NCBI GenBank assembly: GCA_031284265.1
Contig: JAITAG010000068.1
Location: 1-42,334 of the forward strand
Origin: Puniceicoccales bacterium
GTDB taxonomy: Bacteria > Verrucomicrobiota > Verrucomicrobiia > Opitutales > LL51
Length of the DNA stretch: 42,334 nt
Direction of reading: 5' to 3'
The translations under genes and the position numbers were made by a program. Below are positions 12,001 to 42,024 of this stretch, piece by piece (the first letter of the stretch is position 1; each line of letters opens with the position of its first letter). The notes under the pieces are model-generated. The model saw nothing but the letters and a program-made list of their open reading frames with translations. It did no database searches and was not told the DNA's origin.

Positions 12001-15000
12001 ACGTCGGTGCTACTTTTGCTTAAGTTAGTGAAGGCAGTTTTATAGCCGTCTAAACCATTCAAATTTGGATTATTTTCCAATCCAAAATCGCTAACAATTT
12101 TATTATGGGCCAATACAAACTGGCTCATAAGCCACCGCGAACGATCATAGGCTTCATCGACCTGCTCTAGATTCCTATGAGCAATTTCTGCAACAGAAGA
12201 AACAGTTTCCGCAGGATTTAAACCCGTAGCAGCGATAGTACCTATGGCGTCATACAAGCTTTCAAATTTCAACTCCCTAGGAAGATTTTGCACATCGGTG
12301 AAATATGGACCATTTTCGGGCACAAGTCCTTCCTGGGAAGGATTTTCCGTTTTAACCGCGCCACCTACGATGCCTTTTAATGTACCATTTTCCGGTGTCG
12401 ACGTATACAATACACTGGAAAAACTTACATCGTAGGCAGTCCTATCAATCGCATCGAGTAAACTGAGGGCATCCGCTTTCGTAAGTGTAAATTTTCGGTC
12501 TTCCACATTCCCCAATTCCTCTCGATCGACAAAACTTCTTAGCGCCGTCCTTAGGTCATTCAATGGGATAAATTGCGATTTCCAACTGGGATACAGCTTC
12601 GTCAACAGATTGCTCAAAGTCATTTGTTTGTTTTGTTGTAAAATTTGAAGCAACTGTTGTAAAATTACCTGGCCATGACTCGCCGCTAGATCGGTCAATT
12701 TGTTAGCCGGATCATCTCCGATTTGTACACCGTTTTGGATGCTTGCCATGTATTCGGTTTTAAACTTTTCTTCCAAACCTGATAATGCGCTGTGCATATC
12801 TTGAAAGGACGTTATAGCGTCTGTAGCATTTATTGAATCCAATTTGAATATATTAATATAAATTCCAACGGTTGTTCCTTTCAATAGGGCAACAGCCTCA
12901 TTGTAGGCGCTTGCAATTTTATTGAAAAGGTAAACATAATAATCCTTTTCTACGGTATTTTGAGTTGTACTATCAAAATCTGAGGATAAAAGTTCTATGG
13001 GCTGCAATGTATTAATATTGTCTTTTAATGCACCAGCCTCACTTACTGAACCCATGTTTACCAAATTCGCCATGGTTTCATTTAAGGCGCTGAATTTTGT
13101 CCCATAGGTTTCAAATTTAGTTTCAGGATTATAATCCGCTTGGGTAAAAATTATTTTTAGGCTATTTTCCCCATCGGCTTCCCAACTCGGTAAAATTGCT
13201 TTCAAAGTTGCCTCATCACAATTACCTTTGAGCGGCAATAGGTTACTTTCAAAGGAACTGATCAGTGAATAAACCGCACCGCTGTCTTCTAAAAATTTAA
13301 TCAAACCATTGAGAATAATTCCTAGGCTTGGTCGCAATGATGCAAATTCTGCCTTTAACCGTTCATAGGATGAATTTCCCCCTTCCCTATTGACATACCA
13401 GTCGGAGTATTTCTTTTGCGCTTTTTCTAGGAAAAATGCAACTTCGATGTGATCTAAAATGGTCAATAAATCCTCGATCGCATTCCTGAGATTGGCCTCA
13501 TTGGTGATATTTCCCGTACACGTTGCGTCGATATTTATAGCGTCTATGTCCGCTCTGATGATATCCAGTGCATTTTTGATCTGCGTAAAAACATCGTCCG
13601 CAGTACTTGAATCGGCGTTTTTAAGCGTTGTTATTAAGTTGTTAGAGGGATTTACCAATCCTTTTAAGCCTGCACTGACAACATTATACGCATCAACAAA
13701 TTTGTTAACGGTATAGGCATAGCCTCCCCCATCCTCAAAAGTTTTAGTTGCAGACGCCAATCCATTTAAATCGTTATAAAGTGTAGTGTAGCGATCGGAT
13801 TCCCTCGGATCTATAAAATTCTTAAATATGCCATTTAGACTCTTAATCGATTCGTCATCCGATTGGTTAACCAATCTATAAACGGATTTCATTTGATTCT
13901 GGATATCTGTCTTTGCACTATCCGAAATACTACTGGCTAAATCTTCGACACCTTTTGGTATATAGGTATCGCTTTTAATCAGTGGATAAACGTTGGCAAA
14001 CAGGGTTAAAAGCGAAAAATCAATGCTATTGGAACTGATATATTTGGTCAGTTGTGAAAATAGGGAAGTTCCATCCGTATAGGGAATATGTTCACAGGAA
14101 ACGAGCAATTGTTTGAATTGCGATAACAATTCTCCATTGTCATATAAACCCGATGTCCTATAGGCTTCAATTGCATTTAAGATTTCTGCAACGGGAATAT
14201 TGATATCCTGACTGGGATCATATCCCGTGTCCACATACTCGACAATCCCTTTGGCATATAGATACGCTTCCGCTTCTTCATTATATTCTTTTTCTCCATC
14301 TAAACTGGTCACACTCGCATCGACCGTTCCCGAACCATAGAGTCCATTTTCCATGGTACGCATGATTCCATGGTCAATGGCCATGCTGTAAATTTTATTG
14401 ACTAGTACCTGGCGCTTGACCGCATCCGAACGCCATCCCGTAATCGTTTCATCCAAAAGATAAGTATTTAACTCTTTTCTAAAATTGTTGGCTTTGATAT
14501 ACTCCAACAACAAATCAATGATCTCCAATTCTCGCTTTAACACAATCTGTTCACTGCGTATTCCCTGTAAAATGGCCTCCGCGAAAATATCATTACCATT
14601 CGCCAAATCATTATATTTTTCGAGTAAATTCGTCAGCTCAACGCTGTAATCACTGATATCATATTTCCCTTGGTCTTTGTAACATTTCGCCCCATATTTC
14701 TCGTAGACATGAATATAATCTATTAAAAGCCCGGAAATATTTAATGCGGATCGATCGGCCTTGAAAAAGACGGAAAATAGATCGTATTGATTGTCCAACT
14801 TGGGGTGGCGATGGGATGTACCATCTTCAAACACGTAGGCTTCTCCATGAAATTGAAAGGATTGTATGGCATCGTAATATACGCCGTAATTCGTGCGCAA
14901 TTCTTCAATTTTTTCCATTAGAAGCGTGCCCACGTCCTTACTATTCCTCGCTTTAGCGGTTCCAAACCACCCTCCCAATAATTTTGTAAATTTCACAAAA

Positions 15001-17450
15001 TCATTATAAATAATGGGCTCATAGTGATCTTTCAAAATCTTGGCATAGGTATATTCTAAAAATTTTTCCGTTTCCGTATTGATTGCTGAAATTGAAAAAC
15101 CGTTAATGGTTACAATTTTTTCTCCTAAAATGATAGATCGTAAACTTTGTAATTGGGCCTCGACCTTATCCTTCGTTGCCAATACCAGTGTTTCCTCGGA
15201 AATTTGTTTTTCAATGGCAGTAACCAGGGAAGAATCTTGTGGCGACGTGTCTTCGGACAAATGTAATATTTCCTGAATAATTTTTCCCGCATTGGCGCGT
15301 ACGGCAGTATCCTTAATAAATGCATACTTTCCCTCCAATTCCTTTTTCGTCGCGTCGTCAGCTCCTCCCGATAAGAATGATTCCAGTCCCTCATTAATCC
15401 ACGCTTTGATCCGTTCTTGAATGTCATCGAGATTTGAATTTATAAGCGATCCGTCATTCAAGGATGTAATAAAATCTTCACCTATAACAGTGATGCTGTC
15501 GGTGGGTTTACCGAACTTTTCGTCTAGTAAACGGTTTACAATGTACAATTCGAGATCGGGAAGAAAATTCCCCGATAGCGCATAGCGCAGCTTTTCCCGC
15601 TCTCCTTGAGCCGCATTGTCTACCATCGGGAAAATCTTTTTGATTGCATTGCGGATTTTTGAATCTCGAAATTCATTAATTAATACCGTATGTACGGCTT
15701 GCATGAGCGGTTCTCGTACGCGTCGATCGATATATTGTTTAATAGTAAACGTTTCTCCATTTAAATAATCTGTAACATTTTTAAATACACTGTGGCTCTC
15801 AACCACGGGCTTATAATCGATGATCAGGTCATCTACCGTTAATTCCGCGGGCAGATGGTTTTCGTTCTTTAACAAAATTAATTGACTTTTGACATATTTT
15901 AACGCTTTTTGGGATATCTGGAATTGTTCCGTTGACAGTGGATCTCCCGTATCCGTAAGTTTCACATCATCGGAAAATTCCATATTTAAATAGCGATCAA
16001 TCTGATTAATTTGGCATTGTAACTTATATTTACGCGCTTCCCTAAGTACAAGATCACTCACCAATGAAAGAAATAATTTGCGAATTTCGCTGCGAATGGC
16101 ATTTAAAGTATTGGTTTTATCCGTTACATCGAAGTAACCTTTGCTAACAAAATCATCAAAAACTTGACCGGCAAGGGCTTCAATATTATCACTGCCTCCA
16201 CACTTTACCGTTATGCCCCCATCAACGGCGCCTGTGCTGAGATAGGTCTCTATCTTTTGTGAAATTTCGTCCTTAATTTCATCGTCGGAGACGAGATTCT
16301 CCGTACGAGTTTGAAGAGATTTTAATGTCGTCGATAGGCCGATCATCAATAGATCGCGGCACAGGGCATCGGCAACGGTCTCGCTATCTAGACTATTTTG
16401 AATCTTTTTTACGAAAAAATTTCCCAGAATTTTGCGAACGTTATAGGAAATGGTCGCATCACTTAAATCGATCGCGCTAATTTTATCCTTGTAAAGTAAG
16501 GCAGACGTTTTTCCTGCAATGAGGTCTCTGAGATAATACAATGGCGTCGACTCAATACCGTCTCGCTTTTCTATGTCCGTCGCATCGTCATCCAAGCTAA
16601 TTTTATCGTCATTAATATAAATCGATTGTGTAGCCCTGCAATAATCCCTAACCATATAATAGTTCACATAGGCGACAATTTCTGCCCAACTTAATTGGCT
16701 GCCATTGCTCTGGCGGGGTAAATCGGGAGCAAAAACGATTTCTTTTAAAAAATCTTCGGTCGTATTTTTCCAAATGCTATCTTCCCTTTGAAGCGTGGGA
16801 TTCGTTAACCGTTCGCGCAAGGAATGATCAGCACTGAGTAACTGTGTACTAATTTGATAACCCGCATCGCTGAAAAATGTATCGTGGGCAAGAAACGTAA
16901 GCCATTCGACATTTTCTCGAGTCAAATTTCTTTGCTCAGACGCAGGATTATCCCAAATAAAATGTTCCGGATTGGGTGCTGCCGGCTTTGAGGTTTTAAA
17001 TTCCAACTCGCTGAGCCCGGGCCCATCCTTTGCGGTTAATGCTTCGTCAACGGGATGCAATATGAAGGAAGGTAACGCATCTATATTCCTTATATAATTC
17101 CGATCGATGGCACTCTCCCTTGGCCTAGGCAGCCCTTCGATAACCGGTTCCGTAAATTTCGGAAATAGGTCATTTACGATTCCTTTTGTCGTCTGCGGTG
17201 GAGAAAATTGCGGCAGATCCGAAATGCCCTTACTGAAAGCCGAAGGAACGTTTCCAGGATTTTCAATATGGTCAGGTTTTGCCAAAGGCATACCGGTATC
17301 TTCTCCGATATTCATCTCAATCTCATAGAACGAAAATGTTTTATCCGGGTTAAATGGATTGTTGCGAGGATCTGCTGGGTCCAGCAAATCTGGAGCCATC
17401 GCCCCCAATGTTCCTTCCATGTATTCTTTTGGATCAACTCTTATTCCCAT
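1..17450 (-). CDS. Giant protein: N-terminal 5,816 codons in window, C-terminus beyond the left edge; no family recognised
   Basis: ATG at 17450-17448 follows GGAGG with an 8-nt spacer. I hand-translated about 800 codons from the start and about 33 codons at the left edge. I also spot-checked the frame near 2.5, 3.3, 5.2-5.9, 7.5 and 10.0 kb and found no stop. If this frame held a stop, the track would list a minus-strand ORF starting at 17450, and it does not. No other track ORF across these 17.4 kb exceeds 204 aa. Confidence 0.9.
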   Translation of the reverse strand, partial: MGIRVDPKEYMEGTLGAMAPDLLDPADPRNNPFNPDKTFSFYEIEMNIGEDTGMPLAKPDHIENPGNVPSAFSKGISDLPQFSPPQTTKGIVNDLFPKFTEPVIEGLPRPRESAIDRNYIRNIDALPSFILHPVDEALTAKDGPGLSELEFKTSKPAAPNPEHFIWDNPASEQRNLTRENVEWLTFLAHDTFFSDAGYQISTQLLSADHSLRERLTNPTLQREDSIWKNTTEDFLKEIVFAPDLPRQSNGSQLSWAEIVAYVNYYMVRDYCRATQSIYINDDKISLDDDATDIEKRDGIESTPLYYLRDLIAGKTSALLYKDKISAIDLSDATISYNVRKILGNFFVKKIQNSLDSETVADALCRDLLMIGLSTTLKSLQTRTENLVSDDEIKDEISQKIETYLSTGAVDGGITVKCGGSDNIEALAGQVFDDFVSKGYFDVTDKTNTLNAIRSEIRKLFLSLVSDLVLREARKYKLQCQINQIDRYLNMEFSDDVKLTDTGDPLSTEQFQISQKALKYVKSQLILLKNENHLPAELTVDDLIIDYKPVVESHSVFKNVTDYLNGETFTIKQYIDRRVREPLMQAVHTVLINEFRDSKIRNAIKKIFPMVDNAAQGEREKLRYALSGNFLPDLELYIVNRLLDEKFGKPTDSITVIGEDFITSLNDGSLINSNLDDIQERIKAWINEGLESFLSGGADDATKKELEGKYAFIKDTAVRANAGKIIQEILHLSEDTSPQDSSLVTAIEKQISEETLVLATKDKVEAQLQSLRSIILGEKIVTINGFSISAINTETEKFLEYTYAKILKDHYEPIIYNDFVKFTKLLGGWFGTAKARNSKDVGTLLMEKIEELRTNYGVYYDAIQSFQFHGEAYVFEDGTSHRHPKLDNQYDLFSVFFKADRSALNISGLLIDYIHVYEKYGAKCYKDQGKYDISDYSVELTNLLEKYNDLANGNDIFAEAILQGIRSEQIVLKRELEIIDLLLEYIKANNFRKELNTYLLDETITGWRSDAVKRQVLVNKIYSMAIDHGIMRTMENGLYGSGTVDASVTSLDGEKEYNEEAEAYLYAKGIVEYVDTGYDPSQDINIPVAEILNAIEAYRTSGLYDNGELLSQFKQLLVSCEHIPYTDGTSLFSQLTKYISSNSIDFSLLTLFANVYPLIKSDTYIPKGVEDLASSISDSAKTDIQNQMKSVYRLVNQSDDESIKSLNGIFKNFIDPRESDRYTTLYNDLNGLASATKTFEDGGGYAYTVNKFVDAYNVVSAGLKGLVNPSNNLITTLKNADSSTADDVFTQIKNALDIIRADIDAINIDATCTGNITNEANLRNAIEDLLTILDHIEVAFFLEKAQKKYSDWYVNREGGNSSYERLKAEFASLRPSLGIILNGLIKFLEDSGAVYSLISSFESNLLPLKGNCDEATLKAILPSWEADGENSLKIIFTQADYNPETKFETYGTKFSALNETMANLVNMGSVSEAGALKDNINTLQPIELLSSDFDSTTQNTVEKDYYVYLFNKIASAYNEAVALLKGTTVGIYINIFKLDSINATDAITSFQDMHSALSGLEEKFKTEYMASIQNGVQIGDDPANKLTDLAASHGQVILQQLLQILQQNKQMTLSNLLTKLYPSWKSQFIPLNDLRTALRSFVDREELGNVEDRKFTLTKADALSLLDAIDRTAYDVSFSSVLYTSTPENGTLKGIVGGAVKTENPSQEGLVPENGPYFTDVQNLPRELKFESLYDAIGTIAATGLNPAETVSSVAEIAHRNLEQVDEAYDRSRWLMSQFVLAHNKIVSDFGLENNPNLNGLDGYKTAFTNLSKSSTDVNKADLINSYNDSLNNLNLHNQINEICLSINTAQTTIQGLTTNEGDNLLDSNGTPNWANLSMDDVSTTITLNDQLFRIKKFKDNANSTEFYVVKNTIGANTFETFLTSNDVGKLQSLITAELELYQSFNNQVVLNIVDQLGSYNGNDYAASDFLTENIIDTTGNIFTTEFNNQVSKLVGQDNLSLLAIYGGVYAYGIQSKIEAASATFKGLLDAENFWQLAEDYVFNAIEVDVETKTVGELEYSEETQTAVKENYIEGLKSNIYKTLTRKKNDSDTQTELDTILTNLCSAIATSNNNDQATQINKLNRLFTELLKKISEATFDGSDVSVLLQTKDTGLPDDITITITNEDQAELGIYANQILANFRYQVVDELRRAFANNELNELKSTVDQLGKLKELLCSIIATVDLESESSSIYLFGNNDGDNDKNTTNSYVFYDENETEETDPGMTDLLIQHLTEEIDSLQTQNADMATHPASTYFLQKAEFDYDTWVAIGDDTDIIGAVNLFVEKFASVTYGANGIITSFGADIIDWDGFWAQNADGNDLKTVISSAYSGFDDNGQKAFQYSFLKALDGITNKDHFSSNNKNQLKYILANFDLYCLEIEDNTIEEKFGFLKQIDNSESRSDTPFGTALDSESGEFHPEEAHYVWNNDAINEIRNEIVKYPGSGTVNPPVYVSTTENLMDSYDERYANAYWKYVVNTYAYNLFIDNNSTMEAMRETLESLTQSLKTNGYSTEDMTQKGLFQDLKTQYDAFLMTFSWNGNSSLSADDLRVLGVSDDWIGILQNRSVSDEEKNASVDYVNNLILPNIREQLRYIIVSALATPDDDEKLAFETIRNALNDGNIKDGIFPEYHEIFTLLGIFDGTIEIATSQSLPTILSSVATTIDGYQLDLRDVFNATTQSALTAALNSFTNYNLAETKTTVDNALTSNEPADGTPRTLQQRIVGDRLENIQAILSNFESLKNHVKLCTDESYLDYQDRVADNNEIGESEWNQTIAGILAEIRKESSPSLETLKTFSTRLNNALGRNVTTDDNPTDPEVIAAMEDILNCSAEIEKLLLLSVLLSESKEIVQKFLCGEEASSESEEAPYSGISAFDDKTSALTFNEVLTLAQNADSTGISSTALLGNRIQKVADLIDSTHVGTSLKGIFTEASQEIQYVYNLSEISKALLGSGSQQNEFLNALNDFSNEIFSNPSSWDDITTQTIENLALTDINKNNENHSLSILVEAYNEAVSFFQSDALIKADVLTAIQPKITDFITAYDATNPSAYATQKEALQTSLASAEGLLTIFKTVFNSSGLDQAPAYREVLSIIHCQLRLKIDEEIQKLKNSYSCVEKSDPSDPLNTSYYVDVTPITWDESQITAHNAYINHLIEHLYRFEAMTYLGIFSKFNQNAVTREEMAMFRFVFGHWEELETADEELCEKYLSTAEVNALKILLHKAYIAQNTASEATLGDIFQSIYPKNTINDIDLSNIKGSINTNLKNEKFEVFSGIFNNYRQKVEQCIYSLYTEFQKYIRNGATPQITTISKISLDKLLHDLQDSAELCVLIKGMESFVEAINGKISALNTYLTLFVAEPTQEKLDDINTAFGEIINAINGKISSASYGCFQNCLNEIKVAFEQAQPQYYLLLLEKLYPNLATNETQRLNLKEAFSGAFPNDSYDTADQTVKDVINNIKGQIAVLFSNFGQDESLQKYYEAHRGSTFGQALTPNVNKLNSNVVQNANANFQQLTYIKSKFKELHRLLWYVLKPPTNTTAEQAIKALQELAGTTPIDSTATGSDAEDAKTKYDQLTGIYNAIREKLGTAGSDSFAQALNALIAGDYVSIADYKDTNICEKIKAIIDAIKQFQNDTITDMFKAFNAACFMVFLQKKYPYWNSDETQLTEAKEAYSDICEDILGNGETSYYTCGDTANVQTLLEKIKPYQGDLKIVDSRPHYFTSDSSSNCMQAHRVDGVGWLYREPAEKEGYIQYDVQQNKQYILSNGQYFELVEQEVAFVQLSPEQHVRILTPHILYEQSGGGYRLTADKVTQPVSENAVNYYVLGEDGTYYNIKRYHLKYKVYDGDNIKYIDLHSNDTFCYRATLRGYAEVASKDFPDLKGPLANDRDYFIIGDEGQYYKVDDVYTKYYYKEAELSDSESDNTSNTKEPIANGTYYKIVGETTDGCVLENGETVSIYSETLERNNTGVLFTQDNNGNYYLDNGFYYKIQTIGGELYIKRADGTNKKITASNGERYKISGYDSTKFDGSGTNENEAVKVGTQYYSLKKYKIVYNNGSSILPLEGNLSSLSGKTLYVLPGDISLSRLEASNIVSKGGVSMGTSLDIYRSSLTPFYRSTQNEKKFFGMKLYQWGVGEKYIARDDPYLVIPVTYERYVRNSENPEGFTAESKDVYIFSEVLNQYVLVGNTDAYYFTQGEKEYRVEFPDRRYVRQAVENSDQYLYVPHPESKYTEQSGSTAIDGDCIYANGKFLPIKQDDPGNGEPKINRTQKFQVKVNPDIDTNNDYVQASDGGYYPLKDVKIKTINGREFTYSTAIFYKAAETPSPLSIASWQPYALEEETYNNLFTKNTNQGELIRASEEGSTETCFVIPVKSVAGSYVHGENGRYYDVNNGSSRELYVDYDLVSDEGNWFVLQEDTLVQVDRKFYAKYSETDYKEIKTVGANETIKAGTKSLLPGNRYIEVSGNIIQIKDGEREYVKKSDNTYVPLKDNTGKVMVKKKVNVSGGMEGLNGILVANASDKKVVTEVKDKDLYIAKDMQVEGANGQLYNLNGMTVNGSESGSGPALDTHGLSNIFVKKSGTKFVRVSQPTEQYTVNENASGNFVKIGSKYYDRRRDDITLKVKYENEEGQMSYRTLNGNDTNIPIYLSIGDSKVQVKPTEGSNVSGSGLFEQYNVQANGSPTYTALSRQQSKAVRFGTQYYNLKDFQLVVKRNGKLSKFIGNLDELKSSNGVYMVPYLVPEKADLETYDAAKAIKVDRYYVPTKDEFSLNMDQYLPKMREYADRKNENLEEKDKINVDNLVGNFRQNGDYTECSKLLDDTLKDIYNSGNGKFEIYTITKTANTGYANSQTVNCYLKGTDNAFYGAKNLKVAIDGAYNDFLGFVYSEKASTAITSLSEDIFKNYEFIYSQDTTATDVVLFIKGDDGQYYAMKIGSDPQLYIGQGTTAIRGNYLFKVDDVSIPHPTQFIYVTENNLGDRIKIVNEYVKKSEISVNDPNAGIHSFFVNAYGKDVAVNDLVTLYKEANTGDTGTLCYQIDTDPGSASPVVYFGQEKKVTIDGTSGSYAPDPEGGVVRAETTGYYEWNAVKNDPNFIRLRDVYYVKRDPNEEVYFVSSLAMDTLYIYGTKYDFCTLDNVGDGLYYKYEGDFSTARDDQYCNSAAIQLRGTDGKLYKKDDLFQKGTQLEYVPVKDLAMIVDGSDEAIITDVYVKSFAQTLERVETLINNIDSDNSRALYGELGGKIREHLDAINGNLDTYSKAIAVYDQKGELGAVALQNHPEYRSDGSGALVDVFDEYTKRVIISTDEKWLNYYRGIRDEVEAYKVSSEEQNIFVQRLTSINNVLFNHFGNIVSHEEFWGGDLSLAVGKLVRQIEPTITPKLGTNPSATDRENFNTKLYETCYTRFEEMVTNLETLRLSWDLEDKAKEAEAQGVESVISPEMNTLKERLGETIKKLKEFTADKIKVIEAQVELYGKIMLLEYVYNNYGKIGNEIVFLNDTVQFQRTPGKIAVQFVKLSTGEHALRLCDYVRSNGADPLLGHEFLFRYNNTKGEIEKCVLDLASAYGSYTNNKWTTKDNSVIKAYSASSPYLFTVGSGEGGTSIECKWGKARSTVDASEWGVDGILFKDVIRHNALQTLFRYKEDGATTSTEGYIYTLAKAKLPKNDLMMDYVEQVTKNMEVPIYMARDRLCFFEMANYKTPAMIGMIQEKTQKLADEPASPFDPLNSMQVEFLNTTGLNEMDLHAATAITNVPESVILKLAPASTDDPNGWPQVNGSDSNQVQAGSLVSFLRD

Positions 17451-17458
17451 TTTTTCAT

Positions 17459-17463
17459 CCTCC
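17459..17463 (-). promoter_or_regulatory. Shine-Dalgarno (GGAGG) of the giant ORF
   Basis: Plus-strand cctcc is GGAGG on the minus strand, 8 nt upstream of the ATG at 17450. Confidence 0.6.
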
Positions 17464-17529
17464 TATTTTTTGTTTTTTATAAATTATGTCTTTATTTTCT
17501 TACTTTATTTACGATTAAAAATTTTTCAC

Positions 17530-18768
17530 CTACAATTGGAAACGGTGAGGGCCCACCTGACGCCGATAGGCTACGAGTGTCTTCGATTTATTTTCACCAC
17601 TATGGGTATCATCTATCTCCGACGATACTTGTCCAGAAAACGGTAATCCGGGTAAGGTCATTCCCTCAAATCGATTGATCTCTAGCCGTTCCATTTGTTG
17701 CTCGTCCCGATCCATAGGTTCCGTTATCACGGACGACTTTTCTTTATTCTCGAGCTGTATCCTCGATTTTAGCGCCGAAATCACCATACCGTTCGCTCGA
17801 GTAGTAGGTACCTTTCGAAGAACCTTCTGTATCACTTCATCGACGGCCACCACCGGTGATAACACTTCATCTCCAATATGGGAATCGGATAGCCGATCGG
17901 TTTCACCGCGCGAACGGGAACGCATTTTTTCGATATCATTTGCAATGAGTTCCACCGCCCTTACCTTTAAATCTCCGGAAGATTGCTCCGGCACACCTTC
18001 TGTTTGTGTCTGTAAACCATCGGAAATCCCACCATCATCGGTAGAATTTTGTGGTAACAAATGCGTACCGGTGATAATCTGTGGACCTTTTGTGGAAACT
18101 ACGACTTCTAACTGTTCCGAATAATGGCGATCAAAATCGGCATCAATGGAGCGTTTTTCCTGGAGATCGGGTAACACAAGGGTCGATGTAAACTCTGCCA
18201 AAGGTTCATATTTGGGCACGTAAGGCAAAATCGGCAAAGCCATCGCTTTTTTCTGTTCATGGGTAGCATTTTTCACTTCCTCCAATGCCGCCGATAGACG
18301 CTCCTGAATGGCTGCAATTTGTTCCTGCGCATTCCGATCAAAAATCTCGTCCACATGAATGGCTTCAATTTTTTCCGTCTTTGTCTGTTTTAGTAATTTT
18401 TTAAGAATTTTTTCCGTTTCGGCAGATTTTTCGAACGGCAGTGGATCCCAGCCATTGCGCGGAGCTCCGAATTCCAATTCCAACTCCATGCGTTCCCGGG
18501 CGACACCGGCAATAACCTCATCCAGATTTTGTTGTATAATAGGCATTTTAAACAACTCTTCCTGTGCTTCGGACGTCAGACCAAAATGCGCAAAGAATTG
18601 TTCCACTTCTTCGATTGTCTTTTTCACTTTTTGCTCCAACTCCTCCGGCGCCATGGAAGGTACTTCCACGGCTTCTTCCTGTTCATCCAATAGGGATAGG
18701 GAACCGCCCATTTCTTTCAGGAATCTTTCGGTCTGCATTTGAACAAATTTTTCATGTAATGTTTTCAT
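17530..18768 (-). CDS. Hypothetical acidic protein (412 aa) between sctV and the giant ORF
   Basis: Long ORF whose ATG lies 12 nt after the sctV stop. It is Glu/Gln-rich and helical-looking at the N-terminus, and Ser/Asp/Gly-rich in the C-terminal half. I recognise no motif. Confidence 0.75.
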   Translation of the reverse strand: MKTLHEKFVQMQTERFLKEMGGSLSLLDEQEEAVEVPSMAPEELEQKVKKTIEEVEQFFAHFGLTSEAQEELFKMPIIQQNLDEVIAGVARERMELELEFGAPRNGWDPLPFEKSAETEKILKKLLKQTKTEKIEAIHVDEIFDRNAQEQIAAIQERLSAALEEVKNATHEQKKAMALPILPYVPKYEPLAEFTSTLVLPDLQEKRSIDADFDRHYSEQLEVVVSTKGPQIITGTHLLPQNSTDDGGISDGLQTQTEGVPEQSSGDLKVRAVELIANDIEKMRSRSRGETDRLSDSHIGDEVLSPVVAVDEVIQKVLRKVPTTRANGMVISALKSRIQLENKEKSSVITEPMDRDEQQMERLEINRFEGMTLPGLPFSGQVSSEIDDTHSGENKSKTLVAYRRQVGPHRFQL

Positions 18769-18780
18769 AGTTTTTTATTT

Positions 18781-20883
18781 TTAGGTTACGGCAATTCTAC
18801 CCAGAGGTTGTATGGTAATTTCTTCGGTGAGTTCCTGGTGGGAGAGTACCGGCAATTCGTATAACTCTAACTCAATCAACTTGCGGACGTAGCGGCGAAT
18901 ATCCATGGAAGTGAGCAATACGGGACGGTTAGTTTCCTGTGTAAAATCCCCCACTTCTTCCTTTACAGTGGTGACGATTTTTTTCGCCGTATTCGGTTCC
19001 AATGCCAAATAGCTTCCCGCCGAAGTCTGGCGAATGGATTTGCGAATGACATCCTCCGTACCCGGATCCAATAGATAGACTCCCAAAATATTCTGTCCGC
19101 CACTGTACTTGTAACTGATGTAGCGCTTCAAACTTGTTCGCACATAGTCAGCCAATAGAATGGGCTCCTTTTCTTTCTGTCCCCAGTCGATGAGACATTG
19201 CATAATGAGGCGTAGATTGCGAATGGATACGTCTTCCTGAACCAGTCGCTGTAAAACTTCTCCAATCTTTTGTACGGGCAATACGCGCTGTACTTCTTTG
19301 ACCAATTCCGGGAAATTTTTCTCGAAATTTTCTAGAATAAATCGCGTTTCCTGTAATCCGATGAATTCGGAGGCATATTTTTTTAGAATAAATGAAAGGT
19401 GGTAGGTCAAAATTTGAGGCGATGTCATGTAATTGATACTCGCCTTATCCATTTGTGGGATGAGGCTTTTTGCGACCCATAGCGCTGGAATATTGGGTAA
19501 AAATGCCTTTTCTTCCTGATAAGGGATATTTAGAATGCCTAGACTTTCCTTCGTTTCGCGGACCAGTATGCTTCCTTTTAAAATACGCCCCTGGGAAACC
19601 GGTACCTCCTGTAATAGGATTTGATACATCCCATCCGTTAAATTTTCATTGAAACGCAGATGAATTCCGGGAAATGGTACGCCCAGATCGAAATAGAGTG
19701 CCTTTCGAACTTGGATCAATTGGTCATTGAGGACCATCGGGTCCACGGACTCTTCAATGGAAGTCGCCACATCGAGCAATAGCGGTACCGTAACCGAAAA
19801 CTCGCCTTTCTCCTCCTTAAATGTGGGAGCATTCGGCGCGATATCCGAAGGCAATCCGGTATTTTTGGCAACCTTAGTCACCTCACCTCCGCCCTGTGGT
19901 TTTCCCTCCGTTTGCATCAGCGAGCGACCGGTCAAAAGGATGAGCGTACCGATTACGAGAAAGGGAATCTTTGGAAATCCTGGAATGAGCATAAATCCGA
20001 TACTCATGACCCCCGCAATAACCAATGCCTTGGGCCGCGAGAGTAACTGTTTACCGATATCACTGCCGAGTGGTTTCGCATCACTGGAACTTACCCGAGT
20101 TACGATAACACCGGACGTAATGGAAATGAGTAGGGAGGGCAGTGTGGAAACGAGACCGTCGCCGATGGTGAGAATGGCATAGGTCGTGATCGCCTTATCC
20201 ACTGTCATGCCCTTTTGAAAGACACCGATAACGAGTCCAGCAACGATATTAATGGCGGTCATAATCAATCCGGCAATGGTATCGCCCTTGACGAATTTCA
20301 TCGCCCCATCCATGGCACCGTAGAGCTGGTTTTCCTGTTCCAAATCCGTACGTTTTTGCTTAGCCTGTTCCGTATCAATGCTTCCCGCCCGCAGGTCCGC
20401 ATCGATACTCATTTGCTTACCCGGCATCGCATCCAAAGTAAAACGGGCCGATACTTCCGAAACCCGCTCCGCACCCTTCGTGATGACGACGAATTGCACG
20501 ATGAGTAGAATGCCGAAAATAACCGCGCCGACGACAAAGTTTCCTTGGACGACGAAATCGCCGAAGGTGAAGATAATCTCACCGGCATCGGCCGTTAGCA
20601 AAATCATTCGCGTACTGGTAATATTCAGTGCCAGACGGAATAGTGTTGTAAATAGCAAAATACTGGGAAACGTCGATATGCAAAGTACGCGCGGAATATA
20701 CATTGACAGCATCAATAGGCTGATACTCATCGATAAATTGAGCGCCAATAACAGATCGAATAGAAACGTCGGAATGGGCACAATCATCAGCATGATGACG
20801 GCAACAACGACCAACGCTAAAAAGATATCGTTATATCTCGATACCGTTGCCAATAGGCTATTAAATCTCGTGCTAAAGCTCAT
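18781..20883 (-). CDS. sctV: Type III secretion export-gate protein SctV (LcrD/YscV/CdsV; FlhA superfamily)
   Basis: 700 aa with an N-terminal multi-TM region. Hallmark segments are FRLALNITSTRMIL, SARFTLDAMPGKQMSIDADLRAG and MDGAMKFVKGD. The C-terminus SMDIRRYVRKLIE...PVLSHQELT..IQPLGRI closely matches my recollection of Yersinia LcrD, favouring an injectisome over flagellar FlhA. Confidence 0.92.
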   Translation of the reverse strand: MSFSTRFNSLLATVSRYNDIFLALVVVAVIMLMIVPIPTFLFDLLLALNLSMSISLLMLSMYIPRVLCISTFPSILLFTTLFRLALNITSTRMILLTADAGEIIFTFGDFVVQGNFVVGAVIFGILLIVQFVVITKGAERVSEVSARFTLDAMPGKQMSIDADLRAGSIDTEQAKQKRTDLEQENQLYGAMDGAMKFVKGDTIAGLIMTAINIVAGLVIGVFQKGMTVDKAITTYAILTIGDGLVSTLPSLLISITSGVIVTRVSSSDAKPLGSDIGKQLLSRPKALVIAGVMSIGFMLIPGFPKIPFLVIGTLILLTGRSLMQTEGKPQGGGEVTKVAKNTGLPSDIAPNAPTFKEEKGEFSVTVPLLLDVATSIEESVDPMVLNDQLIQVRKALYFDLGVPFPGIHLRFNENLTDGMYQILLQEVPVSQGRILKGSILVRETKESLGILNIPYQEEKAFLPNIPALWVAKSLIPQMDKASINYMTSPQILTYHLSFILKKYASEFIGLQETRFILENFEKNFPELVKEVQRVLPVQKIGEVLQRLVQEDVSIRNLRLIMQCLIDWGQKEKEPILLADYVRTSLKRYISYKYSGGQNILGVYLLDPGTEDVIRKSIRQTSAGSYLALEPNTAKKIVTTVKEEVGDFTQETNRPVLLTSMDIRRYVRKLIELELYELPVLSHQELTEEITIQPLGRIAVT

Positions 20884-21269
20884 AATACTGCCTTTGTTTT
20901 AGATTTTGGACAAGCGATAGCCAGGCGGAGATCTTGTTCCTGCATGCCTAGAAAGTGGGTATAGGCGGAACGAGCTTCTGCGTCCCGTCCCAAAGCCCAT
21001 AAAACTTTACTCTTCAGGACAAAGAATAATTTATCCAATTCCTTTGATTTGGGGAGTGGTTCTGCCGATTGGAGGGCTTGCAATGCCGTATCGGGCGTAT
21101 TCGACTTCAATGCGGCAAAGGCGAGCGAAAGGTTGACGAGTGAATCCTCTGGAAAATATTCCGCGAGAACAAGCGACAGAGCAAACGCATCGTCGAATTT
21201 ATTATAGCGCAAAAAAAGGTAAATGAGAATTTCTAAAAATTCCTTCTGAGAATCATCCATAACATCCAT
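20880..21269 (-). CDS. Small helical-repeat (TPR-like) protein; positional analogue of the T3SS chaperone SctY/YscY
   Basis: 129-aa ORF whose stop overlaps the sctV start (ATGA). It has Ala/Leu-rich helix-pair patterning. In Ysc/Psc loci a TPR protein of about 115 aa (YscY/Pcr4) sits directly upstream of the sctV homologue. The assignment rests on position and composition only. Confidence 0.4.
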   Translation of the reverse strand: MDVMDDSQKEFLEILIYLFLRYNKFDDAFALSLVLAEYFPEDSLVNLSLAFAALKSNTPDTALQALQSAEPLPKSKELDKLFFVLKSKVLWALGRDAEARSAYTHFLGMQEQDLRLAIACPKSKTKAVL

Positions 21270-21278
21270 CCGATTCTC

Positions 21279-21306
21279 AATATAGTGAGGAATAAAAACT
21301 TTTCAA
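21279..21306 (-). promoter_or_regulatory. Candidate sigma70-type promoter of the TPR-like/sctV/giant-ORF operon
   Basis: On the minus strand: TTGAAA, 16 nt, TATATT. The -10 element ends 9 nt before the ATG at 21269, implying a near-leaderless transcript. A paralogous copy lies at 23537-23564. Confidence 0.4.
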
Positions 21307-21348: not shown

Positions 21349-21382
21349 CTAAAAAAATGGAGATTTTTCATTAAAAATCTCC
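21349..21382 (-). terminator. Rho-independent terminator after family member G
   Basis: 10-bp stem GGAGATTTTT / AAAAATCTCC (21359-21382) with a 4-nt loop, followed on the minus strand by a T-run (ATTTTTTTAG). A near-identical copy lies at 23592-23615. Confidence 0.6.
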
Positions 21383-21438: not shown

Positions 21439-22518
21439 TTAAAACGTTTGATATTCTGGGGTTAAGCAAAAATATGCATCCACAAGAATAGCAATTAAAC
21501 CTCCCGCGACATTTAGTCCGTTACCTCGAGGCAATAAAGAACTCAGGTGCTGAGCACATTTTTGCGATACATCTTGAATAAAAGTACAAAAACTCGCACT
21601 AATAAAACCAATACATATGACACCATTGGCAGCATTATGATGAATAATAGCATTAACGCACTCCCTTACCTTTTGCATTAACGTTTCGCACCACCTCAGC
21701 AAATCTCGGTTTTGTTCTCGTAGCTCAAACTTTTCAGCGGATAATTCCTTTTCTAATGGAGTAAAATTTTCGTCTCCTCCAACTAATTCTTTCTGTAACT
21801 CGGTTTTTCGTTGCTCGAATGTCTTTTGTAGCTCATACATTTTTTGACAAAATCCTTCTACTAACACAATTTCTCGTTGACCAAATTCCTCTATCAACGC
21901 TGCTTTTTGTTGATCAAAATCGGCCTGTAATGCAAAATTTTGTTGAGCAATTTCTGCTTCCAACGCGGCCGTTTGCTGGGTAAACGTTTCTTGCAATGTA
22001 ACTGCTTGTTGGGCGAATGCCGCCTCCAATGCTTCTCTTTGTTCCGGATTGACGGCTAGCCATTCAATGGCTTGTCGGTTAAATTCTTCCATAAACGCTG
22101 CTTTTTGTCGATCAAATTCGGCTTGTAATGTGAGGCTTTGTTGATTAAATTCCTCTATAAATTTAGTTCTTTCTCGTTCAAATTCTTCCAGAAAACTTTT
22201 AAACCAATCAACTATTTGTGATTCGAACTCGTCCAGCAATGATGCCGCTTCTTGTCGAGTAGGTTCACCATCAAGTGATTCGAGTACTTGTTGAGCAAAT
22301 TGCATGTGCAATGCGTCTTCAGATGCTTGGACTTGTTCCAAGGCGCCTTCGAATATTTCAACATCCCCTACACAATCTCCCAAACATGCATTTAGCCGAC
22401 TTTGTTCCTGTTGGAATTTCTCTTGTTTTTCTTGCAATTCCGAAGCGTAACCCCATTGAATCCCTGGTATTTTAGCTATACAGAGCATTCCTAACATAAT
22501 CATTTTTTTCATATCCAT
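21439..22518 (-). CDS. Shared-leader family member G (359 aa): leader, hendecad-repeat body, C-terminal hydrophobic region
   Basis: Leader MDMKKMIMLGMLCIAKIPGIQWGYASE. The body is built of 11-residue repeats (xxxLQxxFxQQ). The C-terminus NGVICIGFISASFCTF...GGLIAILVDAYFCL is hydrophobic. Confidence 0.85.
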   Translation of the reverse strand: MDMKKMIMLGMLCIAKIPGIQWGYASELQEKQEKFQQEQSRLNACLGDCVGDVEIFEGALEQVQASEDALHMQFAQQVLESLDGEPTRQEAASLLDEFESQIVDWFKSFLEEFERERTKFIEEFNQQSLTLQAEFDRQKAAFMEEFNRQAIEWLAVNPEQREALEAAFAQQAVTLQETFTQQTAALEAEIAQQNFALQADFDQQKAALIEEFGQREIVLVEGFCQKMYELQKTFEQRKTELQKELVGGDENFTPLEKELSAEKFELREQNRDLLRWCETLMQKVRECVNAIIHHNAANGVICIGFISASFCTFIQDVSQKCAQHLSSLLPRGNGLNVAGGLIAILVDAYFCLTPEYQTF

Positions 22519-22634
22519 ATCGCTCTTCCCCCTATTTAACCTCTGAATCCCCGCTTAGGAAAACAATGATAATAATAATAAAGCTAAGCGAAAAAATCAG
22601 AAATTTCCAATTAAAATAATGACTTTAATTTTTA

Positions 22635-23507
22635 CTAGAGATTTATCAGCCTATTCAACCAAGACGGAGAGGATGCTGGAACAGACAACGGTTGCGAATC
22701 TCTACATTGTTGCAACTCAGCCAATCGTCGATTGAATTCCTCCTGCAATCTCGCTTCTTCTCGAATTAATTCTGTTTCTATTTCTTTTATCCGCTGAGTG
22801 TATATTCTTTGTTGTTCCCTATTTTGATCGCAGCGATCTACTTGCAATTTCTTTTTCTGTCGATCAAATTCTGCCGATATTTTATCGCTTTGCCGTTTGA
22901 ATTCCATTCGAAGTGTGTTTTTTCCTCGATCAAATTTTTCTTGTCTCTCGATTATTCCTTGATCAAATATTTTCTGCAATGCAGTTGCTTCTCGATTGAA
23001 TTCTCCCTGTAATGCATACATATGTTGGTTGAATTCTTTTTGTATTTCCGCTAGTGATTCATCCCCGTGTTCCGATAATGCTTTGGATGTTTGGTTGAAT
23101 TTTTCTTGCAATACAGCTGCCCGTTGATTAAAATCCTCATATAAGTTCTTTTTTGCGCGTTCAAACCATTCATCTAATTCAGCTACGCAGTAATTGAATT
23201 CTCCTTGCAATGCTGTTTCATATTCAGCAAATTTTTCTTGCAATGCAGCGTCTTTTTGGGTGAACTCTTCCCGCAATGCAGTTTGTTTTTGAAAGTATAT
23301 TATTGGCAATTCAACATCCTGAAAAGTTGCATCCCTTTGCAATTCAACATATCTTTGTGCGAATTCTTCTCGCAACATAGCTCGCCGCCGTTCAAACTCT
23401 TCACGCAACGCCGCTAATTCACCTTCACACGAAGCTTGACAATGTTGAATTTCCGGTACCGTGCTCGTACAAAGCAAACCCAATATGATCATTTTTTTTA
23501 TATCCAC
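22635..23507 (-). CDS. Shared-leader family member F (290 aa): leader plus hendecad-repeat body
   Basis: Leader (M)DIKKMIILGLLCTSTVPEIQHCQAS. The start codon is GTG at 23507, preceded by AAGGAG with an 8-nt spacer. The body has repeats such as ALREEFTQKDA / ALQEKFAEYET / ALQGEFNYCVA. Confidence 0.85.
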   Translation of the reverse strand: MDIKKMIILGLLCTSTVPEIQHCQASCEGELAALREEFERRRAMLREEFAQRYVELQRDATFQDVELPIIYFQKQTALREEFTQKDAALQEKFAEYETALQGEFNYCVAELDEWFERAKKNLYEDFNQRAAVLQEKFNQTSKALSEHGDESLAEIQKEFNQHMYALQGEFNREATALQKIFDQGIIERQEKFDRGKNTLRMEFKRQSDKISAEFDRQKKKLQVDRCDQNREQQRIYTQRIKEIETELIREEARLQEEFNRRLAELQQCRDSQPLSVPASSPSWLNRLINL

Positions 23508-23536
23508 AAACTCATCTCCTTAAAATTTCAATTCTA

Positions 23537-23564
23537 AATATAATGAGGAATAGATATTTTGCAA
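23537..23564 (-). promoter_or_regulatory. Candidate sigma70-type promoter for family members F and G
   Basis: On the minus strand: TTGCAA, 16 nt, TATATT. It lies in a segment paralogous to 21273-21390. Confidence 0.4.
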
Positions 23565-23580
23565 ATTTTTTTTATAAAAT

Positions 23581-23615
23581 ACTAAAAAACCGGAGATTTT
23601 TCATTAAAAATCCCC
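23581..23615 (-). terminator. Rho-independent terminator after family member E
   Basis: Stem GGGGATTTTT / AAAAATCTCC (23592-23615) with a 4-nt loop, followed on the minus strand by GGTTTTTTAG. Confidence 0.55.
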
Positions 23616-23739
23616 GATTCTTGTTAAAAAATTGATTAATAATGATTTTGGCTCTTACCAAGACTTCAATTTTACATTAATAACCTTTCACGAATTGGTC
23701 ATTCCTATAATTGGCGATAAAAGCTTTACAACTTTTTGT

Positions 23740-24234
23740 TCACCGGAGTGAAGCCTGCAGCTGAGGAAGCGGAAGCGCGCACTCAAACTTTTTCAAAAAG
23801 CATTTATAGCAATTCAGAATCTGCGTACCGCTTTTATCGAGTTCATTTCGGAGCTCTATCTTTTCTTCCAGCGATAACCTGCCATTAAGCGCATTTCTCG
23901 CTGTGTGCAAAGCTTCCGGATGCGCATTGAAGGCATCATAGATTACCAATGCACTTGCCAATAGGGCTGCGCCCAGGGCTTGTCCATCCGTAGGATTATT
24001 ACCAACGAGCTTATACGTATTATTGGCTATTCCTTGAATTAGACCCGGCAACCACGCGCAATTATTCTTCGACAAACAGTCAAGGAATGATGGAAAAAAA
24101 TTATTTCCATAATCATTGACTGGACTGTATCCAACCACTGGATAAGTTGCATCTTCTTCCCTATTAATTGTAGCCGATCCACCGAGTGATAATCCGCATA
24201 ATATCCCCACGCTAATTATTTTTTTTATATCCAT
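23740..24234 (-). CDS. Shared-leader family member E (164 aa)
   Basis: The track ORF starts at a TTG (24291). The family-conserved ATG GAT ATA AAA AAA start is at 24234, behind AAAGGAAAAGAT. Leader MDIKKIISVGILCGLSLGGSATI. Confidence 0.75.
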   Translation of the reverse strand: MDIKKIISVGILCGLSLGGSATINREEDATYPVVGYSPVNDYGNNFFPSFLDCLSKNNCAWLPGLIQGIANNTYKLVGNNPTDGQALGAALLASALVIYDAFNAHPEALHTARNALNGRLSLEEKIELRNELDKSGTQILNCYKCFLKKFECALPLPQLQASLR

Positions 24235-24316
24235 ATCTTTTCCTTTATTGTATGATTTTAACCAATTCGACAATCCTTTCGAACGTTGCAACTTAAAAAG
24301 TCAATGCGCTCGTCGC

Positions 24317-25144
24317 TTAAGGAGTTGCTTGTGTAGCCTCTTGAGCAGCATTAAACAGGGATTTGCCTGAAGCAATGGCCTGTGTAAACCACGTCCCAAA
24401 AACTAACGCAGAAGCTTTCAAGTGGCCTCCCAAATTCAAGAAGCCTCCCTTTACACAATTAAGCCAATTCAAGGCATTAGAAATATTTTTCATGAACAGA
24501 GTTATACCATTCGCACGGCCATACACGCCCCCATAGTAAAGAGGCAGACCAATAAAATGACACAAAACTGCACTCCCAATAACACCACCAATAGCCAGCT
24601 TGTGCCGTCCTAAGAATTCGGTTAAGATTTCGGCTTTTTTGCTTAAGAAGGAGCGTTTTTGCTCTAATTTTTCTAATGTTGCTTGACGTTCTTTGATTCC
24701 TTCTTCTAAATTTCTGTGCTCTTCAGTAAACATTTGTCGCAAATGTTCGAGTGTGCCTGTGATTTCTTCTCTAGTAAAAACTTCACACTCACGAACTCTT
24801 TTTCCCAATTGCATGTATTCACTTCCTATTGTACCGAATACATCTTTCATTATTTGATTTAATTCTTCACAAGTTCTTGCATTGCCAATGGAATCTTGTG
24901 CCTTTCTTAAAAAATTTTCCAGATCGGTTTCAAACTGGCTAATAAGTCTGCCTGCCTCTACCTGTCTTCTGTTCTCTTTCAGATTTTCGATTTGTCTTAG
25001 TGCTGCATTTCTAGCTCGTGCCTCAGCACTTCCAGTTTTTGATCTAGCACTTCCTGTTTTTCCTGATGCATTGCAACCATTATACGCTCCAATTGTTCCG
25101 ATTGCACCGAGCAATCCCAATATGATCATTTTCTTTGTATCCAT
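24317..25144 (-). CDS. Shared-leader family member D (275 aa): leader, helical body, Gly-rich hydrophobic C-terminal region
   Basis: Leader MDTKKMIILGLLGAIGTIGAYNGCNAS. The C-terminal region LAIGGVIGSAVLCHFIGLPLYYGGVYG...ASALVFGTWFTQAIASG is hydrophobic. Confidence 0.85.
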   Translation of the reverse strand: MDTKKMIILGLLGAIGTIGAYNGCNASGKTGSARSKTGSAEARARNAALRQIENLKENRRQVEAGRLISQFETDLENFLRKAQDSIGNARTCEELNQIMKDVFGTIGSEYMQLGKRVRECEVFTREEITGTLEHLRQMFTEEHRNLEEGIKERQATLEKLEQKRSFLSKKAEILTEFLGRHKLAIGGVIGSAVLCHFIGLPLYYGGVYGRANGITLFMKNISNALNWLNCVKGGFLNLGGHLKASALVFGTWFTQAIASGKSLFNAAQEATQATP

Positions 25145-25178
25145 ATCTTTTTCTTTCCTTTAATATCGTTAAATATCG

Positions 25179-26003: not shown

Positions 26004-26048
26004 ATTTTTTTACTTTCTTTATTTGACAAAAAATTCGACTCTTCTCCA

Positions 26049-26615: not shown

Positions 26616-26670
26616 ATCTTTTCCTTTCTTTATTTGACAGAAAAACTTAGACTTCTTTCCTTTGATTAGC

Positions 26671-41941: not shown

Positions 41942-42024
41942 CTTAGTGGGGTAGATTAAACTTAAACATCGAATTGCAAACTCTAAGGGCTGCTCGCCAT
42001 TAGAATCTTCGCCAGGGGATGTTT

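Follow-up and report, generated by a model that had tools for sequence, protein, structure and literature searches.

The 42,334-nt stretch of DNA analyzed here (below, the window; contig JAITAG010000068.1, positions 1 to 42,334, from a Puniceicoccales bacterium, assembly GCA_031284265.1) carries four genes that appear to form a conserved type III secretion system (T3SS) operon. It starts with sctY, continues with the export gate gene sctV and an orphan gene of 412 codons (orf412), and ends with a gene of enormous size, the product of which we refer to as the giant. In our preferred interpretation, which we consider to have about an even chance of being correct, the giant is a secreted substrate of the translocon/tip class, and the orf412 product is its partner. 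The first-pass annotation of this DNA had already proposed that the giant is a T3SS substrate or accessory protein. This proposal is now supported by the lack of a Sec signal and of transmembrane segments in the visible part of the giant, by its fast evolution and by sub-threshold similarity of a homolog to EspA/SseB proteins, although it stays unproven. The features of the operon and of its upstream boundary are as follows:

21359-21382, minus strand: terminator-like hairpin, 10-bp stem and 4-nt loop, then a T-run, ATTTTTTT
21279-21306, minus strand: candidate sigma-70-like promoter, TTGAAA-16 nt-TATATT, 10 of 12 matches to the consensus
20880-21269, minus strand: sctY, the head gene, an open reading frame (ORF) of 129 aa, tetratricopeptide repeat (TPR)-like, assigned to the T3SS apparatus-assembly chaperones
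18781-20883, minus strand: sctV, 700 aa, injectisome export gate
17530-18768, minus strand: orf412, 412-aa acidic orphan
17451-17529, minus strand: spacer between orf412 and the giant ORF, 79 nt, A+T-rich, without a hairpin
1-17450, minus strand: 5' part of the giant ORF, ATG at 17450, open to the left window edge, at least 5816 codons

The coordinates and junctions of this four-gene block, including the giant's own Shine-Dalgarno sequence, were confirmed as first described. The sctY and sctV genes overlap by ATGA (the junction reads GTATTATGAGC), the orf412 ATG lies 12 nt after the sctV stop, and the giant ATG follows the orf412 stop after 79 nt. The Shine-Dalgarno sequence of the giant gene is strong (AGGAGG at 17464-17459, 8 nt 5' of the ATG), and none is evident by eye for orf412 within the 12-nt spacer between sctV and orf412. 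The 79-nt spacer is unstructured, with a minimum free energy (MFE) of -2.5 kcal/mol and z = +1.35. The terminator-like hairpin at 21359-21382 (MFE -18.8 kcal/mol, z = -2.69, better than 199 of 200 shuffles) would end the upstream gene and mark the 5' boundary of the operon. It had been called the only terminator-like element here; the hairpin itself stands, but a weak match also lies inside the start of sctV (20845-20824), probably by chance, as the region contains 10 such matches versus 6.6 expected. The promoter-like site predicted upstream of the first ATG was also recovered, and it is the top of 12 promoter-like matches in the region. Since 10.8 matches are expected from shuffled sequence, it is regarded as a candidate only. 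Its -10 element ends 9 nt 5' of the sctY ATG (21269), and therefore the mRNA would be nearly leaderless. The G+C content is 0.43-0.47 in the stretch from sctV through orf412 into the beginning of the giant gene (16000-21000), as well as in positions 1-2000 of the window, the final 2 kb of the giant gene that can be seen, and 0.36-0.40 in the middle of the giant gene.

The assignment of the 700-aa protein to the injectisome-type SctV proteins is secure at the level of profile comparison. It scores 879 bits with TIGR01399 (cutoff 692), 627 bits with the FlhA model TIGR01398, which is below the cutoff of 772, and 750 bits with FHIPEP PF00771, where profile positions 1-656 of 657 are matched. The 129-aa product of the head gene matches the SctY model NF052415 with 77.3 bits (cutoff 70) over profile positions 1-105 of 106, and its gene lies directly upstream of sctV, as also in the Lentisphaeria contig L003. 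By these matches it is SctY, a YscY-type chaperone, rather than a generic TPR protein, so that the first description of it as TPR-like was right but can be made more specific. For the same reason the statement that further injectisome components are absent from the window is not strictly true, since the TPR-like protein passes the SctY model and SctY is one of these components. With one genome per species considered, the nearest SctV proteins come from metagenome-assembled genomes (MAGs) of Puniceicoccales (75% identity), Chthoniobacterales (63%) and Lentisphaeria (57%). Identity to SctV of Ysc/Bsc-like systems and Desulfovibrionaceae is 50-57%, versus 48-49% for Chlamydiales. An exact match to SctV of the window was not found in the assembly index.

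The linkage of the four genes is retained in all related contigs that were examined. The order sctY, sctV, orf412 homolog, giant gene is observed in 11 of 11 of them (L001, L081, L082, L083, L085, L087, L088, L090, L091, L092 and the partial L084), with SctY of 126-130 aa, SctV of 691-700 aa and orf412 homologs of 372-465 aa, then the giant ORF. Junctions were measured in eight loci, namely the window and seven related contigs, and show the same overlaps and short spacers; in all of these loci but L083, the spacer between orf412 and the giant gene is 6-84 nt long and unstructured. In L083 the called spacer has 155 nt and is predicted to fold stably (MFE -20.1 kcal/mol); we ascribe this to a miscalled start. 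Moreover, homologs of orf412 and the giant gene carry consecutive NCBI locus tags in four MAGs. The upstream neighbours vary: cysS and prs are found there in L001, an HD-domain gene and a gene for a 1125-aa protein in L091, and accD/NamZ genes in most others, which makes at least three different flanking contexts. As the order is kept while the flanks differ, the block moves as a unit. Hence the comparison with relatives suggested by the first-pass annotation came out in favor of the linkage, and the recurrent order, overlaps, short spacers and differing flanks support the reading of the block as an operon, as far as gene arrangement can tell.

Among the relatives that have a full cluster, L003 is the nearest, and its gene order is sctC ... 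sctW-sycN-sctX-sctY-sctV-sctD ... sctJ-sctL-sctN. Because the full order is found there, the operon of the window is best described, from synteny, as a fragment split from the canonical Ysc-type order sctW-sycN-sctX-sctY-sctV-sctD; it would thus have lost sctX on one side and gained two new genes on the other. A CesT-family chaperone gene is located in L001 (2505-3002), about 6.6 kb upstream of sctY. Since it sits among housekeeping genes, this suggests that T3SS genes are scattered in these genomes.

The two halves of the operon differ in their apparent evolutionary rates. In close relatives, identity to the window proteins is 90-96% for SctV and 77-87% for SctY, and 37-68% for the orf412 product (alignment A5) and 39-58% for the giant; by these identities, orf412 and the giant gene change at a much higher rate than sctV. 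Fast distal genes beside conserved machinery are a pattern typical of host-facing or secreted products. Both distal genes are also lineage-restricted orphans, as judged by homology searches: all named homologs of orf412 and the giant come from records titled Puniceicoccales or Opitutales. Together with the nearest SctV proteins, these homologs point to a Puniceicoccales-like verrucomicrobium as the most likely source of the window.

The visible part of the giant comprises 5816 residues and is acidic. The ortholog in L087 is complete, with 8970 aa inside the contig and no Pfam match on record, the ortholog in L088 has at least 8377 aa, and the homolog P0025, located on a 757-kb contig, is complete at 7571 aa. 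The window giant is collinear with the L087 protein (58% identity over the first 3300 residues) and with P0025 (29-30% identity up to the window end). As these two collinear proteins continue for about 3070 (L087) and 3044 (P0025) residues past the point where the window ends, the true size of the giant is, by extrapolation from them, about 9000 aa, or about 1 MDa. The earlier figure of about 0.6 MDa is therefore valid as a lower bound for the visible part, with the full size given by the orthologs.

The modules that could be distinguished in the visible part are:

16701-17450, minus strand: giant residues 1-250, proline-rich N-terminal module without a Sec-type core
13701-16700, minus strand: giant residues 251-1250, together with residues 1-250 the best-conserved stretch among orthologs
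12471-13943, minus strand: giant residues ~1170-1660, two copies of a cryptic module of ~150-200 aa (jackhmmer E down to 1e-32)
6246-7280, minus strand: giant residues ~3391-3735, two further copies of the cryptic module of residues 1170-1660
3081-5573, minus strand: giant residues ~3960-4790, diverged duplicated modules (3960-4125/4606-4790 and 4200-4340/4453-4580)

Residues 1-1250 are 68-83% identical to the L087 and L085 proteins, and further on identity is about 40-55%, residues 1250-2750 being the least conserved (40-54%). The N-terminal module contains the motif DPxxYxxGTLGAxAPDLxDPxxPxNNPFNPDKT. By eye, no hydrophobic core of the Sec type can be recognised at the N-terminus, MGIRVDPKEYMEGTLGAMAPDLLDP, the first 25 residues of which are rather acidic, and no transmembrane-like window was found in the visible 5816 residues. 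The homology search with the giant was done in pieces rather than with the whole protein. Even at E = 5, nothing in Pfam, NCBIfam or PDB matched the giant; in particular, Pfam scans found no RTX, immunoglobulin (Ig) or autotransporter domains. Internal repetition is limited to one weak similarity seen by BLASTP and the few cryptic duplicated modules revealed by the jackhmmer self-comparison. The profile of residues 1-1050 matched just 30 proteins among 1.84 billion cluster representatives, and metagenome scans for the distal third of the window's giant gene found nothing. Non-ribosomal peptide or polyketide synthases, RTX adhesins and toxins were considered as identities of the giant and rejected, as no corresponding domains were found.

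A deeper branch of the family comprises L001, P0034, P0035 and P0037, which have in common with the window giant the proline-rich module in the first ~190-250 residues, and with its family a few internal modules as well as the C-terminal region; P0034, P0035 and P0037 match the N-terminal profile (first 1050 aa) only at positions ~1-190. Residues 3499-4424 of P0037 align with residues 6063-7048 of P0025 (E = 1e-96), and by this alignment the C-terminal region is common to the deep branches of the family. A 216-aa fragment from the representative library, P0043, has two tandem copies of the N-terminal motif (..NNPF(D/N)PDL.Y.FF..), versus one in the window.

Nearly all public contigs with the locus end inside the giant gene (L081-L085, L088, L090-L092), and only two complete copies were seen, those of 8970 and 7571 aa. 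The gene seems to break short-read assemblies, and its annotation does not go beyond 'partial hypothetical protein'. Because nearly every short-read assembly breaks in it, the gene is systematically under-annotated.

A hint at the function of the giant comes from its C-terminal region. The window giant is visible to residue 5816 of about 8900, and EspA/SseB similarity was assessed in P0025, which is complete. The C-terminal 561 residues of this homolog match the NCBIfam SseB model NF052422 in two stretches with E = 3.6e-5, the top result among 18,950 models. The N-terminal half of this module matches NF052422 with E = 8.7e-5 over profile positions 5-76 of 151, a second SseB model, NF011891, with E = 0.022, and the Pfam EspA model with E = 1.4e-3 (19.0 bits, gathering threshold (GA) 23.4). 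The C-terminal half matches NCBIfam SseB at profile positions 122-150 of 151 (E = 0.047). The halves are separated by an insertion of about 400 residues, which holds the only transmembrane-like segment of P0025. When the insertion was deleted in silico, the match to NCBIfam SseB improved to E = 3e-6 and covered positions 5-150 of 151, and Pfam EspA was matched with E = 1.3e-3 at positions 35-179 of 180. Direct BLASTP comparison of EspA with the module yielded weak, collinear segments, in which LPDEVISYI of EspA is aligned with VIPADVIMFF. As a control, genuine EspA (verified to be identical to PDB 1xou_A) scored 78 bits with NCBIfam SseB and 74 bits with Pfam EspA. No RTX or other recognised domain was found in the P0025 C-terminus.

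The orf412 product is acidic (75 Asp and Glu versus 51 Lys and Arg) and has two conserved C-terminal motifs, IVISALKSKIQ and RRQxGPRRFQL. It has 18 homologs, and all named ones are titled Puniceicoccales; no relative adjoins sctV in the other 79 SctV loci. Neither a signal peptide nor a transmembrane segment was found in it. As a single sequence it matches nothing in Pfam, NCBIfam or PDB; the profile of 16 members has no match in PDB, and none of these 16 members matches NCBIfam at E <= 1. The AlphaFold2 (AF2) model built from 16 sequences predicts a helical bundle at residues ~41-176, with a predicted local distance difference test (pLDDT) score of 80-91, the rest being largely disordered (mean pLDDT of the whole model 56), and a Foldseek search with this model against PDB gave no match.

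Several known proteins were considered as counterparts of the orf412 product, which fails to match the respective NCBIfam, Pfam and PDB entries for LcrR/LcrG/LcrV, SctD, SctW and SctX in sequence. An analogy with the chlamydial cdsV-copN arrangement, suggested by its approximately CopN-like size, was rejected, as no SctW/LcrE/TyeA match was found in 16 family members, and also since SctV is closer to Ysc/Bsc-like and Desulfovibrionaceae proteins than to those of Chlamydiales. SctD, encoded after sctV in L003, was rejected because there is no match and the model is helical and disordered. For SctX, LcrG, SseA and CesAB there is no PDB or NCBIfam sequence or profile match and no Foldseek match, so that only a functional analogy is considered.

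Taken as a working model, the preferred interpretation would operate in the following way. A single transcript would start just upstream of sctY, with translation of sctV coupled to that of sctY through the ATGA overlap; orf412 would be read 12 nt after sctV, and the giant gene from its own strong Shine-Dalgarno sequence. The giant would enter the SctV gate with its N-terminus first, the proline-rich module leading. Its last ~560 residues would form two long helices distantly similar to those of EspA/SseB (SctA), on either side of an insertion of ~400 aa with one hydrophobic segment, and this C-terminal module may dock at the needle tip or join the translocon, so that the huge passenger is left outside the cell. 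The orf412 product would be the dedicated partner of the giant, either a chaperone or a co-secreted protein; in known systems, small helical chaperones (LcrG, SseA) precede the tip/translocon gene. The translocon/tip interpretation fits the locus because in Ysc systems genes after sctV encode the tip protein and translocators, and secreted cargo in general fits because sctV of the Chthoniobacterales MAG contig L002 precedes genes for a CesT chaperone and a toxin-like glycosyltransferase. The model in its most detailed form is tentative, and we regard it as possible rather than probable: a ~1-MDa protein threaded N-terminus first, with an EspA/SseB-like helical hairpin at its C-terminus as the anchor on the needle tip, would form a giant harpoon- or tether-like appendage directed to the host in place of a small tip complex, with the orf412 product as its helical chaperone and SctY re-used without SctX.

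Several observations weigh against this interpretation. The matches of P0025 stay below the thresholds of the models (19.0-19.1 bits versus GA 23.4 for PF03433, and 23.8-27.3 bits versus a cutoff of 155 for NF052422), although genuine EspA likewise misses the NCBIfam SseB cutoff (78 versus 155 bits). These matches are helical and could be partly compositional. EspA was not retrieved by phmmer searches of PDB with either the P0025 module or the construct lacking the insertion, and the single-sequence AF2 model of the module, with helices at 7-64 and 500-560, is not usable (pLDDT 37). The EspA/SseB-like module is so far known from P0025 only, which is 29% identical to the window giant; in the window's own giant, the C-terminus of which lies outside the window, the module is extrapolated from this homolog. 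Moreover, the acidic first 25 residues of the giant are atypical for classical effector signals, and we know of no precedent for a 1-MDa T3SS substrate. On the apparatus side, SctX, the usual partner of SctY, appears to be missing: no match was found among the operon proteins, to which the NCBIfam scans of window ORFs were confined, or 16 members of the orf412 family, while the SctX of L003, used as a detection control, was found at 42.9 bits. The presence of an intact injectisome in these genomes is deduced from the strong conservation of SctV alone. Finally, co-transcription, secretion, the tip/translocon role and the role of orf412 are what we infer from the sequences rather than observe.

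The strongest competing explanation, although we consider it unlikely, is that the giant, and perhaps the orf412 product, are translocated effectors acting inside a eukaryotic host cell and having no role at the tip, the EspA/SseB signal being due to chance or analogy. The arguments from synteny, evolutionary rate and export route apply to it equally, the relative from Chthoniobacterales has a chaperone and a toxin-like effector after sctV, and fast evolution with modules shuffled between lineages, as seen in the giant, is common for effectors; the sub-threshold character of the EspA/SseB matches is also in line with it. However, scans of 5816 + 3071 + 4424 residues turned up no enzymatic or eukaryote-like domain, no CesT-type chaperone gene adjoins the giant gene in the window, and three independent EspA/SseB models are the top matches, collinear with both ends of the module.

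Next comes the explanation, improbable as well in our opinion, that the giant is not a T3SS substrate at all but is co-located, and perhaps co-transcribed, with sctV through genome organization, and acts in the cytoplasm or the envelope or is exported by some other pathway. It agrees with the indirect nature of the case for secretion and the sub-threshold level of the T3SS-related homology, with the position of the operon among housekeeping genes (accD-like, NamZ, ogt, mutY-like), with the N-terminal acidity that T3SS signals do not usually show, and with a size far beyond that of any known substrate. Against it stands the linkage itself, kept in 11 of 11 related contigs, in three or more flanking contexts and at SctV divergence down to 75% identity; as such persistent linkage is hard to explain otherwise, a functional tie to sctV is favored. 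In addition, the giant lacks a Sec signal, visible transmembrane segments and features of type I secretion (T1SS/RTX) or type V secretion, and the best family match of the P0025 C-terminus among all models scanned is a T3SS translocon protein. The last explanation, an assembly artefact or a decaying pseudogene, might be suggested by the breaks of nearly all public contigs inside the gene, but it is effectively refuted by the frame that stays uninterrupted over 17.4 kb in DNA of ~39% G+C and by the intact orthologs of 8970 and 7571 aa, which come from independent assemblies and show collinearity at 29-58% identity.

If the interpretation of the giant as a translocon/tip-class substrate is correct, it would be by far the largest candidate T3SS cargo. 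T3SS cargo proteins that are known or have been proposed reach a few thousand residues at most, and a conserved protein of 7500-9000 aa linked to the export gate would extend this limit about three-fold, with ensuing questions on unfolding, energetics and export time. A small EspA/SseB-like module bearing an enormous passenger would also be a new tip/translocon architecture. Moreover, it would give the first handle on the host interaction of T3SS-bearing Verrucomicrobia (Puniceicoccales/Opitutales), which are known only from metagenomes; a search of the literature on T3SS in Puniceicoccales/Opitutales, or on giant T3SS-linked genes (including those of symbionts), yielded nothing relevant.

The rest of the window contains housekeeping genes (accD-like, two NamZ, patatin-like phospholipase, ogt, mutY-like and thiamine pyrophosphokinase) and three tRNA genes. 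Upstream of the operon, at 21439-27255 on the minus strand, there are seven consecutive ORFs of 183-359 aa with a near-identical N-terminal signal-like peptide MDIKKMI.LGLLG..., which belong to no Pfam family; several of them look heptad-rich (possible coiled coils). In L082, L088, L090 and L092 the accD-like gene is much closer to sctY than in the window, and hence the array looks like a lineage-specific expansion. The next ORF (279 aa, 27356-28195, minus strand) encodes a Pro/Thr-rich repeat, TPTPMPTATVTFSPTPRP, and has no Pfam family; a tandem repeat with a 78-nt unit (2.5 copies, 93% matches) was detected by Tandem Repeats Finder at 27633-27859. Two tandem paralogs of the exo-beta-N-acetylmuramidase NamZ are located at 30368-33196 on the plus strand, the pair being kept beside accD in L088, L090 and L092. 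The patatin-like phospholipase (690 aa, 33425-35497, minus strand) could be a host-directed enzyme, and its gene is not linked to the operon. At the right window edge, just past the thiamine pyrophosphokinase gene, there is a G+C-rich tandem repeat of 41 nt (2.3 copies, 42010-42103).

Among known systems, the closest organization is that of the virA-lcrGVH region of Yersinia and Pseudomonas, with the order yopN-tyeA-sycN-yscX-yscY-yscV-lcrR-lcrG-lcrV-lcrH-yopB-yopD; in Yersinia, the tip chaperone, the tip protein and the translocators are encoded after sctV. As in these Ysc/Psc loci, sctY of the window directly precedes sctV and is presumably coupled to it, and SctV is of the injectisome type; the order sctW-sycN-sctX-sctY-sctV is also present in the Lentisphaeria contig L003. 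Unlike them, the window has no sctW, sycN or sctX upstream, where a terminator-like hairpin and a promoter-like site are found instead, and no homolog of LcrR, LcrG, LcrV, LcrH, YopB or YopD downstream, where the 412-aa and ~9000-aa orphans are encoded. The gene that comes after sctV in L003 is sctD rather than a tip gene.

The EspA/SseB family (PF03433, NF052422) includes EspA, which forms the filament encoded by the locus of enterocyte effacement in enteropathogenic and enterohemorrhagic E. coli (PDB 1xou, 7khw), and SseB, a translocon protein of Salmonella pathogenicity island 2. The P0025 module resembles these proteins in that it opens with a hydrophobic stretch and a putative long helix with an ending of the VIPADVIMFF type, aligned with LPDEVISYI of EspA. 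At its C-terminus there is another putative long helix, which matches the final positions of the SseB profile. The module differs from these proteins in its sub-threshold scores, in the insertion of ~400 aa with a hydrophobic segment that splits the putative helices, and in the 7010 extra residues that precede it, EspA and SseB being proteins of ~190 aa. Thousands of residues and an acidic composition are also established features of giant RTX adhesins secreted by T1SS and of Ig/cadherin-repeat adhesins, but tandem repeat arrays, Pfam domains and a Sec signal are lacking in the giant, where only a few cryptic duplicated modules are found.

Lymphostatin (LifA/Efa1) of attaching-effacing E. coli, reported as T3SS-secreted, is the protein with which the size of large candidate cargo is usually compared, and it is likewise a very large protein of a T3SS-bearing pathogen. 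It has ~3200 aa with glycosyltransferase and protease domains, whereas the giant is about three times larger, has no recognisable domain and is invariably encoded in one operon with sctV in the relatives examined. The mass of LifA/Efa1 is 366 kDa (PMC8505758). The Chthoniobacterales MAG provides a further parallel in gene arrangement: at 2167-5630 of L002, sctV is followed by genes for a CesT-family chaperone (162 aa) and a 980-aa TcdA/TcdB-like glycosyltransferase protein, a probable chaperone-effector pair. Although these two genes are not homologous to orf412 or the giant gene, a verrucomicrobial SctV gene (63% identity of the product to SctV of the window) directly precedes probable secreted cargo there as well.

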